Positions 9,679 to 14,187 of a DNA stretch of 14,358 nt are shown here, piece by piece; the first letter of the stretch is position 1; each line of letters starts with the position of its first letter. Made by a program: the position numbers and the translations under genes. The DNA comes from a virus. The notes under the pieces were generated by a model. The model searched no databases. It was not told where the DNA came from and saw only the letters and a list, made by a program, of their open reading frames with translations. The stretch lies in IMG/VR virus record IMGVR_UViG_3300035698_011115. One strand, 5' to 3'.

Positions 9679-9962
9679 AGTTACCACAAATTGTTAAATA
9701 TTCTCATGAATATGCCGAATTAGCAGAACAAGTACATATACTTAATCTCATGTGTGGTAGTGAATCTAATGAGGTTAACAATCTTACTATAGATGCCTGT
9801 TTAGCTGACAAAACCAATAGAGTATATAATAGGCATATACTAGCATATAACAATCAACCAATATTCAAGATAATACAATTTGGTTTACGTAAAATGGCAC
9901 AAGAGTTACAAGGAAGAATGTCAGAGATAGCTCAACTATTAGAAGGAAAGGATAATGGCTAG
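9675..9962 (+). CDS. hypothetical protein (95 aa)
   Basis: Translationally coupled on both sides: an ATGA overlap upstream and an 8-nt overlap with the downstream ATG. Confidence 0.6.
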   Translation: MKLPQIVKYSHEYAELAEQVHILNLMCGSESNEVNNLTIDACLADKTNRVYNRHILAYNNQPIFKIIQFGLRKMAQELQGRMSEIAQLLEGKDNG

Positions 9963-10545
9963 GACTTGGTTTACAGCGGATTGTCATTTTGGGCATGCGC
10001 GTGTTATAGAATATTGCAAACGCCCATTTGCAAACGTGGATGATATGGATGAGGCACTTATTCAAAATTGGAATGATAGAGTGCAGAAAGATGACTTTGT
10101 GTGGGTCTTAGGCGACTTTTGTATGTCACGTAACATGCAAGTTATACAAAAGTATTTAAGTCGCTTGAGGGGCCGTGTAGGTATTGTATTAGGCGATCAT
10201 GATGCATATGCTAATGTTATGAGTGAAGCAGGGTTTGATAAGGTTAGAGATCTTGTTCACTTCAAAGATAGTGAGCATTTAGGTCATGTTAACATGGTAT
10301 TGTGTCATTGGCCTTTTGCTATTTGGAGAAAATCTCATTACAACAATTGGCATCTTCATGGGCATTGTCATAATCATTATCAAGGTGAAGGAAAAATACA
10401 TGATGCTGGAGTTGATGCCAATGACTTTAAGCCTATATCACTTGAACAAGTAATTGCCATTATGAATGACAAAAAAGATAATGCTAATTTCGTTGGTGAT
10501 AAGAAAGTCAATTCAGTAAGAAGGTATGATAATAAGCCCTTGTAG
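9955..10545 (+). CDS. calcineurin-like metallophosphoesterase
   Basis: The metallophosphatase motifs occur in order: D-x-H (TADCHFGH), GD (VLGDF), GDHD (a GNHD variant) and GH-x-H (HGHCH). Confidence 0.75.
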   Translation: MARTWFTADCHFGHARVIEYCKRPFANVDDMDEALIQNWNDRVQKDDFVWVLGDFCMSRNMQVIQKYLSRLRGRVGIVLGDHDAYANVMSEAGFDKVRDLVHFKDSEHLGHVNMVLCHWPFAIWRKSHYNNWHLHGHCHNHYQGEGKIHDAGVDANDFKPISLEQVIAIMNDKKDNANFVGDKKVNSVRRYDNKPL

Positions 10546-10590
10546 TTCAATGGATGGAAGATACGGGTTCGAATCCTGTCAGGGGTACCA
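10536..10590 (+). other. truncated tRNA-like element: acceptor stem + D-arm + T-arm + CCA, but no anticodon arm (55 nt)
   Basis: The acceptor GCCCTTG pairs with CAGGGGT (two G-U), followed by U8 A9. The D-arm is GTTC-AATGGATG-GAAG. Only AT separates it from the T-arm ACGGG-TTCGAAT-CCTGT, which is followed by A-CCA. The metallophosphoesterase stop codon lies inside it. Confidence 0.45.
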
Positions 10591-10607
10591 TTTTTGAGGA
10601 GGTGAAG

Positions 10608-10805
10608 GTGAATATAATTGATTGTGATAATTGTAAGTTTCGCAAATATTATTTAGAACATTCACGTCATTCTCCTACATGTGAAAATTGCAAGATACAT
10701 AAGCAATTACCAAAAGACAAACAAGAGAAGATACCTAAATGGTACAAGGGACTGTGTGAGGCCTGTTATAATGAGATGACAAGAAAAGACGCACCAATGA
10801 TGTAG
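10608..10805 (+). CDS. small Cys-rich zinc-finger protein (three CxxC pairs), GTG start
   Basis: A strong GAGGAGG Shine-Dalgarno lies 5-6 nt before GTG 10608. The Cys pairs are CDNC, CENC and CEAC. The track's ATG 10554 lies inside the tRNA-like element and lacks a Shine-Dalgarno. Confidence 0.5.
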   Translation: MNIIDCDNCKFRKYYLEHSRHSPTCENCKIHKQLPKDKQEKIPKWYKGLCEACYNEMTRKDAPMM

Positions 10806-10830
10806 GCAATACGAGGAGGCGTTTTATAAA

Positions 10831-11121
10831 ATGTCATGGCAAGATTTGGTAAATGGTACATTTGAATTGTCCGGAAGTTTTTTCATACTATTATGTATTA
10901 TCAAAACACATAACGACAAAATGGTTCGTGGTATACATTGGCTCAATGTTGGATTCTTTACTACATGGGGTTATTGGAATATATACTTTTACCCACATTT
11001 GAATCAATTGTGGAGTGCAGTTGGTGCAGTCAGTATTACTATGATGAATACTATTTGGTTATGTCAATTGATTTATTATACTCGGAAAGAGAAAGCTACA
11101 CAAACATGGGTTGGAGAATAA
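10831..11121 (+). CDS. small integral membrane protein (2-3 predicted TM helices), hypothetical
   Basis: A GAGGAGG Shine-Dalgarno is upstream. The hydrophobic segments are FFILLCIIKT, VGFFTTWGYWNIYFY and AVGAVSITMMNTIWLCQLIYY. Confidence 0.6.
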   Translation: MSWQDLVNGTFELSGSFFILLCIIKTHNDKMVRGIHWLNVGFFTTWGYWNIYFYPHLNQLWSAVGAVSITMMNTIWLCQLIYYTRKEKATQTWVGE

Positions 11122-11122
11122 C

Positions 11123-11491
11123 ATGAACGCACTCATTCTTGAAGATGATCAAGTAAGAATCAAACAATTCAAACAGAGAATGTTAGAAAAGAATTGGATT
11201 GGTACTTTTGTAGAGACTGCAAATGATGCAATCCAGCAATTAAGTAATCATACATTTGATATCATATTTCTAGATCATGATTTAGGTGGAGAAGTATACG
11301 TTTCAAGTGATCATACGAATACTGGTGCAGAAGTAGCAAGATGGTTAAATAAAAATCCAACTCATGCTCAAGTAATTATACATAGTTTTAATCCAATTGG
11401 TGCCAAGTATATGCATGAACAAATAGATGGTTCACTTCGTATACCTGCTATCTGGGTAGACTATAAATTTCATGAGGTGATACATGATTAA
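11123..11491 (+). CDS. second standalone receiver-like (REC/CheY-fold) domain protein
   Basis: The residues sit at REC-like positions: acidic ALILEDDQ, putative acceptor Asp in FDIIFLDHDLGG, and Ser in VIIHSFNP. GGAG lies 6 nt before ATG 11123; the track's 11111 is a TTG. Confidence 0.6.
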   Translation: MNALILEDDQVRIKQFKQRMLEKNWIGTFVETANDAIQQLSNHTFDIIFLDHDLGGEVYVSSDHTNTGAEVARWLNKNPTHAQVIIHSFNPIGAKYMHEQIDGSLRIPAIWVDYKFHEVIHD

Positions 11492-12583: not shown

Positions 12584-12594
12584 AATATCCCTGG

Positions 12595-12635
12595 CTAGGG
12601 CTGAAGTTACTATGATTTCAGCCCTAGTCAGTTTT
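12595..12635 (+). terminator. rho-independent terminator after the tRNA-Trp/small-gene block
   Basis: An 11-bp perfect stem CTAGGGCTGAA/TTCAGCCCTAG with an 11-nt loop, followed by TCAGTTTTG (a T-run). Confidence 0.6.
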
Positions 12636-12825: not shown

Positions 12826-12972
12826 TGACTACAACATCACATGAAACTATAAAGTGTGCAGTATGTGGAACAGATAATGAAGTGTGCCTCGTATTGACCA
12901 CAACGTCATTTGAGGACTTTCCATATGACAAGGACTTACAAAAGTGGATTGCTGTCTACCCATAGAAAGAGG
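12826..12972 (+). CDS. possible 48-aa CxxC micro-protein
   Basis: ATG 12826 has an AGGGTGA Shine-Dalgarno 4-5 nt upstream and a CAVCGTDNEVC motif. It ends 4 nt before ATG 12976. It overlaps in a different frame the track's TTG-initiated N-terminal extension of the next gene. Confidence 0.35.
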
Positions 12973-12975
12973 ATT

Positions 12976-14187
12976 ATGAGAACCGAAGAAGAAGCAATTG
13001 AGGAGATGATAGAAATTGGTCACCCAATGTATTTGGCATGTGCTGGTGCACCGTTTGATGTAGCAGAACGCATGTTAAATGTAGCAGGAGTATCTAGAAT
13101 ATTTCTGGGTTGCACTATTCCTTATAATCCTGCTGCATTTGATGATTTTATTGATATGAAAATAGGAAGTGGTTATTGTTCAGACATAGGAGCAGTACGA
13201 CTTGCCTCAGCGTCATATAGAAAGGCAATGAAAATTTGCTTTGATAATAGTAAACCAACCCATAATTGCATTGGTATTGGCGCAACTGCATCAATAGCAA
13301 CCAATAGAGAACGTAGAGGTAAAGATCAATTATTTGTTGCTGTGGCAACGCAAAATACATTGGATATTTATCATTATGAATTGAACAAAAGATTGGGTCG
13401 TGCTCAACAAGCAAGTTTCTGCAATGATGTGTTGATAAGTATCATTTCGGATGTTGTATTTAATCATAATATCAACAAGGTTATTCCTATTTGGTATAGG
13501 TATAAAGAGATGATAGTGGATGCTGAAAATACATCATGGTATGAAAAGTATGGAGCATGGCATCCATCTGGAACATCTTTCTTGCATCCAAGTAATCCAA
13601 ATTCTGAGGTAATGGATGGTTATAACCAACCACATTTGGCTGCTGGAATGTTCATCTTCGTAGATAGAAATGGGAAAAGAGTATGGTGGGATGGTTATAA
13701 TGAAGACCATTCACCAATTATATTCCCAGGATCATTCAATCCACTACATGTAGGTCATATTGAGATGGCTGAGATTGTTGAGAAAGCTACTGGGCGTGAA
13801 GTAGTTTTTGAGATATCTCTAGAGCGTGTGAAAAAGGGAGAAATTAGTATAGCTGCTGCTTTCCATAGAGCTGAAAAACTTTATGGGAGATGGGGCTTTT
13901 TGATTGGTGGAGATAACACTAAGTTCCTTCTGGATAAGGCTACTTCATATGATTGTTCAGATTTCTTAGTAGGAGAAGATACATTATCAAGGTTGATTGA
14001 TGTATCCTACTACGAGAATCCAGGTGATATTAATGGAGTGTTGTCTGCTATGAAAGATCTAGGTTTGAACTTCTTCGTATTCAAACGGAAAGAAGTAAAG
14101 ATTCCAGTAATAAATCTTTCAAGCATGATGCATGTAATAAACGAAGACTTTGATATTAGCTCAACAGAAATGAGAGGACATGTATGA
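12976..14187 (+). CDS. fusion protein: CinA-C/PncC-like domain (N-terminal) + NadD/NMNAT-type nucleotidyltransferase (C-terminal)
   Basis: The C-terminal half carries the HxGH nucleotidyltransferase motif (FPGSFNPLHVGH) and a terminal ISSTEMR (NadD ISSTxIR motif). The N-terminal ~170 aa resemble the CinA C-terminal domain pattern (LACAGAP..., GVSRIFLGCTIPYNPAA, IGIGATASIA). I chose ATG 12976 over the track's TTG 12910. Confidence 0.7.
   Translation: MRTEEEAIEEMIEIGHPMYLACAGAPFDVAERMLNVAGVSRIFLGCTIPYNPAAFDDFIDMKIGSGYCSDIGAVRLASASYRKAMKICFDNSKPTHNCIGIGATASIATNRERRGKDQLFVAVATQNTLDIYHYELNKRLGRAQQASFCNDVLISIISDVVFNHNINKVIPIWYRYKEMIVDAENTSWYEKYGAWHPSGTSFLHPSNPNSEVMDGYNQPHLAAGMFIFVDRNGKRVWWDGYNEDHSPIIFPGSFNPLHVGHIEMAEIVEKATGREVVFEISLERVKKGEISIAAAFHRAEKLYGRWGFLIGGDNTKFLLDKATSYDCSDFLVGEDTLSRLIDVSYYENPGDINGVLSAMKDLGLNFFVFKRKEVKIPVINLSSMMHVINEDFDISSTEMRGHV

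Follow-up and report, generated by a model that had tools for sequence, protein, structure and literature searches.

A tRNA-like phage element without an anticodon arm, probably the remnant of a tRNA-Arg gene

Introduction

RNAs that keep part of the transfer RNA (tRNA) fold without decoding are known from several systems. The t-elements of plant mitochondria are tRNA-derived, are cut by RNase P and RNase Z, carry a CCA tail and are not aminoacylated (PMC1920247; bioRxiv 10.1101/2024.09.09.612099). Both t-elements and mammalian mascRNA are non-decoding, tRNA-derived structures at message boundaries, where mimicry of the acceptor stem and T-arm recruits RNase P, RNase Z and the CCA-adding enzyme. 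The present analysis concerns a 55-nucleotide (nt) tRNA-like element (encoded CCA included), hereafter X, at positions 10536–10590 on the plus strand of a 14,358-nt viral sequence (IMG/VR record IMGVR_UViG_3300035698_011115), the whole of which is referred to as the window. X combines a tRNA-derived, non-decoding fold with an intact acceptor/T-arm helix and a position at a message boundary, and the plant mitochondrial t-element is its closest working analogy. The RNA ends of t-elements and mascRNA have been mapped and t-elements are conserved across plants, whereas X is known from sequence in one phage lineage; furthermore, t-elements and mascRNA have a cloverleaf-like body and no encoded CCA, whereas X encodes CCA and has no anticodon arm.

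X also resembles the tRNA pseudogenes and fragments described in prokaryotes and phages (PMC9897764), which are likewise tRNA-derived, non-decoding, close to the detection threshold and the outcome of an accident at the DNA level. Those fragments are terminal pieces originating from mobile-element integration or CRISPR spacer capture; X, in contrast, has kept both ends and lost the middle, and its acceptor/T-arm helix can still form. X belongs to the known class of tRNA gene remnants. Compared to a canonical tRNA, it shares the acceptor stem of 7 base pairs (bp), A73, the encoded CCA, the 5-bp T stem and the 7-nt T loop, and lacks the 5-bp anticodon stem with its 7-nt loop. Other non-decoding mimics of the acceptor stem, T-arm and D-arm without an anticodon loop are YrlA RNA (RF02553) and the tRNA-like domain of transfer-messenger RNA (tmRNA). 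YrlA is circularly permuted (T-arm, closed acceptor-like hairpin, D-arm) and has its ends in a long Ro-binding stem, and in tmRNA, which has G3:U70, pseudoknots and a tag reading frame separate the two halves, whereas X follows the ordinary tRNA order with nothing inserted and has C3-G70. Rfam and ARAGORN searches at X gave no tmRNA call and no match to tmRNA or YrlA.

Results

Structure and reality of X

The sequence of X reads GCCCTTG TA GTTC AATGGATG GAAG AT ACGGG TTCGAAT CCTGT CAGGGGT A CCA, and its parts are listed in Table 1. The features named in the original prediction (acceptor stem, U8-A9, a D-arm with GG, a T-arm with a TTCGAAT loop and a terminal ACCA) are all present, as are A14, G18, G19, U55C56 and A73. 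The D-arm is of the arginine type, with a GGAT D loop and A20; in the corresponding register, the GTTC/GAAG stem has three Watson-Crick pairs and a G10xG25 mismatch, and position 21 is G where A21 is expected. The predicted 2-nt join between D stem and T stem holds in this register but not in the others, as a GTTC/GGAA pairing leaves a join of 3 nt and the Rfam alignment one of 7 nt with a D loop of only 3 nt. GG is present in the D-arm, and every register has either the mismatch at 10:25 or an abnormal loop; because several registers compete and each is imperfect, the D-arm is the weak part of X. The minimum free energy of X is −13.4 kcal/mol (z = 0.13), with the tRNA-like fold at −11.4 to −11.6 kcal/mol, and thermodynamic stability is thus uninformative as evidence.

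The Rfam tRNA model RF00005 matches X with 29.6 bits, a marginal pass at a gathering score of 29 (E = 0.009 over the whole window and 1.5e-4 over the local stretch), and its alignment places 2 bases where the model has 17 anticodon-arm positions. The check with a tRNA covariance model that had been suggested for this locus therefore returned a tRNA match with the anticodon arm deleted. The true tRNAs of the window score 52–70 bits. ARAGORN found six tRNAs in the window (Ser-GGA, Met, Ser-GCT, Cys, Gly and Trp) and did not call X. ARAGORN was also used, in its standard and intron modes, to look for a different fold that would have spoken against the prediction, one with a normal anticodon arm or with an intron, and none was found. 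Only when the threshold was lowered to 80% was a call made at X, a junk call whose 84-nt "intron" extends into the coding sequence (CDS) upstream.

Both strands of 1.01 Mb of phage contigs were searched with a strict pattern that required 7/7 acceptor pairs, 5/5 T-stem pairs, a loop of the form TTCRA and a length of 40–95 nt. The pattern gave 53 matches at tRNA lengths (70–93 nt) and, at shorter lengths, no match other than X itself, at 51 nt, in the window and in a second contig (L007). The latter, 745 bp long and from another ENA sample, is 99.7% identical to positions 10436–11180 of the window (2 mismatches) and contains the same 55 nt without a mismatch at 101–155. As X is present in an independent assembly, it is not an assembly error. 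Exact searches for its junction in IMG/VR, JGI metagenomes and GTDB genomes gave no match. X is a real, tRNA-derived feature without an anticodon arm.

A tRNA-Arg gene in the same slot of related phages

The source phage is distant from everything in INPHARED and IMG/VR. A megablast of window positions 9900–11200 against INPHARED gave no match, and all INPHARED protein matches have at most 37% identity. X lies in a slot between the gene of a phosphoesterase and that of a small CxxC protein; no record was found for the window phosphoesterase itself, and an IMG/VR search anchored on it gave only one distant locus, with no tRNAs. The slot is also absent from the loci of more distant homologues of a 96-aa protein. 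Protein searches yielded two diverged relatives only, L002 and L008. The phosphoesterase of L002 is 63% identical to that of the window, and at the nucleotide level the two sequences are 72% identical along 1.1 kb that includes the slot; here, a 79-nt tRNA-Arg(ACG) is found between the phosphoesterase and CxxC genes (L002:1860–1938, 51 bits). L008 is 20 kb long and occurs a second time as JGI contig L095; it runs collinear with the window (80–85% identity) and has a 76-nt tRNA-Arg(ACG) directly upstream of the same CxxC gene (L008:4086–4161, plus strand, 43.8 bits). The comparison of syntenic positions proposed along with the prediction thus revealed a full-length tRNA-Arg(ACG) in both relatives, and the arm-less form at this slot is confined to the window and the 99.7%-identical L007. 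The gap from D stem to T stem is 24 nt in L002, 22 nt in L008 and 2 nt in X.

The nearest tRNAs point in the same direction. When X was compared to the 359 full-length tRNAs of all fetched loci, 13 of the 40 closest were tRNA-Arg, including the best match, and these tRNA-Arg share with X GTAGTTCAATGGAT.GAA and GCCC...GGG(T) A CCA. G1.U72 and the GGAT D loop are common to X and the tRNA-Arg of both L002 and L008, although G1.U72 is not unique to this lineage, as it also occurs in the tRNA-Met of the window. Relative to arginine tRNAs, positions 1–26 and 48–76 are kept in X and about 27–47 (~21 nt) are missing, i.e. the entire anticodon stem-loop and four bases of the variable loop. The full-length tRNA-Arg genes in the same slot of L002 and L008 argue that X corresponds to a tRNA-Arg minus this segment. 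The deletion-derived origin put forward in the original prediction is well supported, and we regard the internal loss of the anticodon arm from a tRNA-Arg gene as very probable. An alignment with two deletions instead of one would make GGAAGATA a leftover of the anticodon loop and its 3' stem; it matches at 6 of 9 bases, which by our estimate is not significant after allowing for possible offsets.

In L008, the closest long relative, the T loop of the tRNA-Arg is itself aberrant, reading ATCATAC in place of TTCRANY. Throughout this phage group, constraint on the arginine slot may be relaxed or unusual. Upstream of the part that is collinear with the window, L008 has a further weak tRNA match (L008:1024–1105, plus strand, 31.9 bits, no ARAGORN call), which may be another degenerate or long-arm tRNA.

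A conserved family of arm-less elements in other phages

IMG/VR was scanned for D-arms joined to T-arms by a short gap. Among the 32 matching stretches, 12 have 7/7 acceptor pairs and no anticodon arm, and 8 of these 12 belong to one set of loci, Group A, described below. A CCA-independent pattern (GTAGCTCA N5-9 GAGC N3-12 GGTTCRANTCC), run on IMG/VR and on GTDB genomes, gave at least 120 matches in each and revealed a widespread family of arm-less elements (L226–L447, e.g. L230, L248, L288 and L304; also L180:9242–9302 on the minus strand, L199, L201 and L182). The elements measure about 58 nt to the discriminator and about 61 nt with the 3' tail. Of the viral matches listed, 114 were parsed; in the correct register, 102 of these form 6/7 acceptor pairs or more, compared to 0–6 for registers slid by 1–3 nt. 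Of the genome matches listed, 100 were parsed and 27 passed filters on acceptor, T stem and linker; most of the remaining genome matches were rejected as false positives in which the anticodon arm of ordinary tRNA-Thr-type genes fits the pattern.

Among the matches listed, there are 87 unique sequences with 67 different, fully paired acceptor strands, forming 52 clusters at 80% identity. The linker between D-arm and T-arm is 8 nt long in 63 of these 87 and 9 nt in 19, and falls within 7–9 nt in all but 4; the consensus of the 8-nt form is CTTGGKKY. Encoded CCA is rare (5/126 of the matches listed). The perfect GCTC/GAGC D stem of the family was imposed by the search pattern. In 38 cluster representatives, changes on both sides are found in 6/7 acceptor pairs and 3/5 T-stem pairs, and the covariation score is 0.737 compared to 0.139 for shuffled sequences; as these representatives had been pre-selected for full pairing, the unselected counts (102/114) are the fairer evidence. 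Rfam scores the family elements with 40–47 bits as "tRNA", and ARAGORN made no call on any element tested. A covariance model built from the 38 representatives (R1) gave 49–72 bits to held-out arm-less elements and 22–46 bits to ordinary full-length tRNAs. The idea that the acceptor stems are the start of long Y-RNA-like stems was discarded (at least 5 extra pairs in 9% of elements and 6% of controls).

Literature searches for encoded arm-less tRNA-like RNAs in phages found no description, and no cultured carrier of the family was found, neither of which is proof of novelty. Two candidates for a cultured relative were rejected: an Enterococcus phage BLAST match proved to be a permuted YrlA-like module, and a Rhodococcus phage "tRNA-OTHER" has an anticodon arm. 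Another RNA, the D12-methyl RNA (RF02950, 84–91 bits; Table 1), lies ~300 nt from the arm-less elements of the sub-family with the acceptor strand GCCCTTG, in a stretch rich in non-coding RNAs that also holds one normal tRNA.

Group A consists of 61-nt arm-less elements (discriminator and CCA counted) in high-GC siphovirus-like contigs. The gene order is major head gene, small open reading frame (ORF), GC hairpin ending in CACCA, element, ribosome-binding site (RBS) GGAGG, 150-aa ORF and head-tail adaptor. The slot was fetched through the downstream protein and is occupied in different ways (Table 1). Among the arm-less carriers, mean identity is 93% for the element, 88% for the upstream CDS, 79% for the hairpin, 74% for the downstream CDS and 55% for the spacer, and within the element only the D loop and the linker vary, apart from a compensatory swap at 1:72. 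Judged by such conservation, arm-less elements clearly under selection exist in other phages.

Two singletons were also found. In L210, the Group A slot holds a 46-nt stump (35 bits on R1) that arose when a tRNA of the type present in its neighbors lost sequence by deletion between CAG repeats. The closest structural analogue of X is a 54-nt element within an eight-tRNA phage array (L179:5133–5186, plus strand), in which the D stem abuts directly on the T stem (0-nt join) and ACCA is encoded; it scores 29.6 bits on the Rfam tRNA model and 37.9 bits on R1, and is a singleton in IMG/VR. Several neighboring tRNAs of this array are unusually long (Trp 84, Cys 83 and Lys 86 nt).

Genomic context of X

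The phosphoesterase ORF overlaps X by 10 nt, its stop codon TAG (10543–10545) being 8–10 nt inside the element, and the GAGGAGG motif starts 6 nt after the CCA of X (Table 1); the description of X as overlapping the metallophosphoesterase stop and preceding a strong RBS is thus accurate. A Pfam search of the upstream ORF gave no match at E<0.01. The CxxC gene probably starts at the GTG at 10608, as read from the sequence, and would encode a protein of roughly 65 aa. Gene callers lengthen this ORF to an ATG at 10554, within X, as in the gene at 119–370 of L007; the extension is spurious, since the CxxC homologues in L008 (4195–4395) and L002 start after the tRNA.

All genes and tRNAs of the region are on the plus strand and tightly packed. 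The ORF at 687–1157 ends on the first base of tRNA-Ser, and that at 1262–1618 overlaps tRNA-Met (1609) by 10 nt, the same extent as the phosphoesterase ORF over X. In total, the tRNAs at 1157, 1609, 7991 and 12508 have 0–12 nt to spare, or overlap, with their same-strand flanking ORFs, and tRNA excision must therefore define message ends in the window. Encoded CCA followed by a T-rich stretch is found in 5/6 true window tRNAs and in X. Promoter-like and terminator-like matches near X show no excess over shuffled sequence.

Table 1 Coordinates of X, its flanking genes and related loci; positions refer to the window unless a contig is named.
Feature	Position	Strand	Remarks
X, acceptor stem 5' strand, GCCCTTG	10536–10542	+	Pairs with 10580–10586; 7/7 pairs, wobbles G1.U72 and U5.G68
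X, D-arm, GTTC AATGGATG GAAG	10545–10560	+	Compared with tRNA-Arg sequences
X, two-base join, A, T	10561–10562	+	Replaces anticodon arm and most of the variable loop
X, T-arm, ACGGG TTCGAAT CCTGT	10563–10579	+	5/5 pairs including G51.U63; canonical T loop
X, acceptor stem 3' strand CAGGGGT, discriminator A, encoded CCA	10580–10590	+	
Upstream gene, calcineurin-like metallophosphoesterase	9955–10545	+	ORF; homologues named phosphoesterase
RBS GAGGAGG (10596–10602) and small CxxC protein gene	10596–10805	+	In-frame GTG at 10608
D12-methyl RNA sites	L271:3536–3599, L262:7160–7223(−), L407:5061–5124(−), L237:2909–2972		RF02950
Group A slot, arm-less element	L207/L185, L209, L211, L214–L217, L219		8 contigs
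Group A slot, full-length tRNA (Thr, Met or Asn)	L213, L218, L221		
Group A slot, 46-nt stump	L210		
Group A slot, empty	L212, L220, L222–L225		

Further observations in the window and in phage records

Directly after tRNA-Trp, the sole window tRNA without encoded CCA, there is a perfect 19-bp hairpin followed by TTTTG (12591–12631, plus strand). From its sequence, this hairpin is likely an intrinsic terminator closing the tRNA-rich transcription unit. The window also encodes, on the plus strand, an 862-aa protein in which major-vault-protein shoulder domains and vault repeats are combined with an SPFH/Band 7 region (1788–4376), followed by a 466-aa SPFH/Band 7 protein (4778–6178); such vault-like and stomatin-like proteins are unexpected for a phage tRNA region. 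A cytidylyltransferase-like gene (NMN-adenylyltransferase type) is found at 12910–14187 on the plus strand, and in L008 (9355–13431) a cytidylyltransferase-like gene is followed by Nudix, NAPRTase and Nudix genes. Taken at the sequence level, this set suggests a phage NAD+ salvage module.

The Enterococcus phage mentioned above is vB_OCPT_Ben, where L461:1185–1306 and 853–960 (MN027503.1:106904–107025 and 106572–106679) are unannotated YrlA-like matches (RF02553) of 47.8 and 34.4 bits, below the gathering cut-off of 69. The module at L461:1185–1306 has the permuted YrlA layout, with a T-arm, an 8-bp acceptor-like hairpin, U8-A9 and a D-arm, and its matched 30-nt junction occurs at 90% identity in 21 Schiekvirus-type Enterococcus phage records. 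The "tRNA-OTHER" of Rhodococcus phage RER2 (L462:555–628, JN116827.1:45047–45120) is called tRNA-Arg or tRNA-Val in sister phages; the loop of its anticodon-arm-like hairpin, AGACGTG, corresponds to ACG between the non-canonical G33 and T37. A full-length tmRNA (104 bits) was found at L010:4498–4917 on the minus strand of a viral contig of 46 kb, which has a gene for a protein of >3,500 aa as well.

Discussion

We favor, with moderate confidence, the explanation that X is a young non-decoding relic that is still transcribed, probably still excised and without a selected function, where transcription, processing and the absence of function are what we infer. On this reading, a phage tRNA-Arg gene lost its anticodon stem-loop, together with most of its variable loop, through an internal deletion. 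Having no anticodon, X cannot decode. C35 is the main identity element for arginyl-tRNA synthetase, and since X lacks it, charging as tRNA-Arg is unlikely. Like the six true tRNAs, X has the orientation of the genes and fits tightly between a stop codon and an RBS, and it would therefore almost certainly be transcribed within the same polycistronic RNA as its neighbors. An acceptor stem, a T-arm and CCA make up a minimal RNase P substrate; as all three are intact in X, RNase P and 3' trimming would probably still release it from the transcript. A relic is suggested by the D-arm, which differs from that of both orthologues at conserved positions (G10xG25; G at position 21). In a tRNA, the variable loop packs against the D stem, and the join of X (2–3 nt) is too short for a variable loop to have been retained, which we count in favor of a relic. 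Its occurrence in a single lineage and the comparable singletons L179 and L210 elsewhere are signs of a one-off event.

Several points weigh against this explanation, some of them against the descent and others against the lack of function. In the shared parts, X is by our count only ~66–68% identical to its tRNA-Arg orthologues; the Ser, Cys, Gly and Trp tRNAs are 83–90% identical between the window and L008. The low identity implies either rapid evolution of the slot or its replacement. Descent is likely, but another tRNA-Arg gene may have moved into the slot, and a direct line from the L002 or L008 genes to X may not exist. All stem differences between X and the orthologues (3:70, 6:67, 49:65, 50:64 and others) are compensatory, although these changes may pre-date the deletion. 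Codon usage gave no sign of adaptation to the loss of tRNA-Arg when the window phage was compared to L008; CGU, CGC and CGA codons amount to 25.5 per 1000 in the phage of X and 17.3 in L008. A flawless acceptor stem, T-arm, T loop and CCA are unexpected under prolonged neutral decay, and a single lineage permits no estimate of the age of the deletion. Finally, clearly selected arm-less elements in other phages imply that loss of the arm alone is not loss of function. We give a real, if minor, share of probability to the retained half being maintained, whether as a processing signal or as a different kind of non-decoding tRNA mimic.

The original prediction had also allowed for a functional arm-less RNA; of the roles it named, nothing supports that of a decoy, while that of a processing signal appears plausible from the context. 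X might accordingly be alive as a tRNA-shaped punctuation mark, with RNase P and 3' processing separating the phosphoesterase message from the downstream one, a possibility that we consider doubtful but worth keeping in view. As a phage counterpart of plant mitochondrial t-elements and mammalian mascRNA, it would work through an RNase P cut at G1 that ends the phosphoesterase message and through trimming at the CCA end that frees a downstream message starting a few bases before the RBS, and selection would hold the acceptor/T-arm helix. In line with this, the acceptor stem, T-arm and CCA are intact and the D-arm is degraded, X sits exactly between a stop codon and a strong RBS, and the tRNAs of the region are wedged between same-strand genes, so that excision must already shape messages. 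The tRNA-derived t-elements are cut by RNase P and RNase Z (PMC1920247; bioRxiv 10.1101/2024.09.09.612099), and in Group A the arm-less element between hairpin and RBS is the best-conserved piece of the locus. X, however, is known from one lineage and has no conservation evidence of its own, and an ordinary tRNA in the slot of the relatives would do the same job, so the deletion may not have mattered; maintenance as a processing signal is in our view rather unlikely. A non-decoding mimic bound or modified by a tRNA-handling protein, i.e. a decoy for a defense nuclease or nucleotidyltransferase that recognizes the acceptor end or elbow, or a substrate of a synthetase that ignores the anticodon, would fit the presence of U8, A14, G18G19, U55C56 and A73. 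To our knowledge, known phage counter-defenses involving tRNA are directed at anticodon-loop nucleases, which need the part that X lacks. The analogue is the tRNA-Leu of Aquifex, which is still aminoacylated without its whole anticodon arm and whose determinants are A73 and the U8-A14, G18-U55 and G19-C56 core (PMC2377443). The argument is by analogy alone, and X has no variable region, the orientation of which matters for leucyl-tRNA synthetase too (PMC2377443), no G3:U70 and a mismatched D stem; with no partner gene identified in the window, such a role is very unlikely.

X could alternatively be a diverged member of the conserved arm-less family rather than the product of a local deletion. 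Both share an acceptor stem, U8-A9, a D-arm, a short join and a T-arm in tRNA order without an anticodon arm, some family members lie just upstream of an RBS as X does, and the 5' acceptor strand GCCCTTG of X is identical to that of the largest sub-family. GCCC-initial acceptor stems are, however, common among tRNA-Arg, and the D loop of X is of the arginine type while that of the GCCCTTG sub-family is not. The family has a variable-loop-like linker of 8–9 nt, a perfect GCTC/GAGC D stem, rarely an encoded CCA, and conservation, whereas X is a singleton with a join of 2–3 nt, a mismatched GTTC/GAAG D stem and an encoded CCA. On R1, X obtains 28.0 bits, far below the held-out arm-less elements and below several ordinary tRNAs. 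Family membership is thus largely refuted and highly improbable; the low score, the missing linker and perfect D stem and the arginine-type D loop point to an independent, more drastic deletion, and by sequence X is outside the family. Least probable of all, to a negligible degree, is that X is a chance match, an assembly artifact or a functional tRNA with its arm hidden by an intron or supplied elsewhere. The Rfam score barely at threshold and the thermodynamic z of only 0.13 would allow this, but the strict pattern gave no false positives in 1 Mb, the identical sequence is present in the assembly of a second sample, the slot is syntenic with tRNA-Arg and the intron mode of ARAGORN gave nothing credible, so that this possibility is already refuted. 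A further lead, the M3 RNA of phage phi80 as a possible arm-less tRNA-like RNase P substrate, was a wrong one, as the record annotates an oop RNA homologue.

For annotation, X is a case in which Rfam reports a non-decoding element as a tRNA, just over the cut-off, and gene callers run a spurious ORF through it. The phage lineage of X has lost a tRNA-Arg(ACG) that is present in its relatives, and X represents one route open to a phage tRNA gene, on which decoding is lost and the requirements of RNase P and the CCA end are kept. If the punctuation role were true, X would be an early, independent case of what the arm-less family appears to have become, and phages would repeatedly recycle tRNA genes into arm-less structural RNAs. 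More interesting than X itself is what following it exposed, a large, structurally covarying family of arm-less elements in phage contigs. If these elements are processing or protein-binding signals, they would form a common, unannotated class of phage non-coding RNA. In that event, X and its full-length orthologues would make a natural "before and after" pair, open to direct comparison by experiment.

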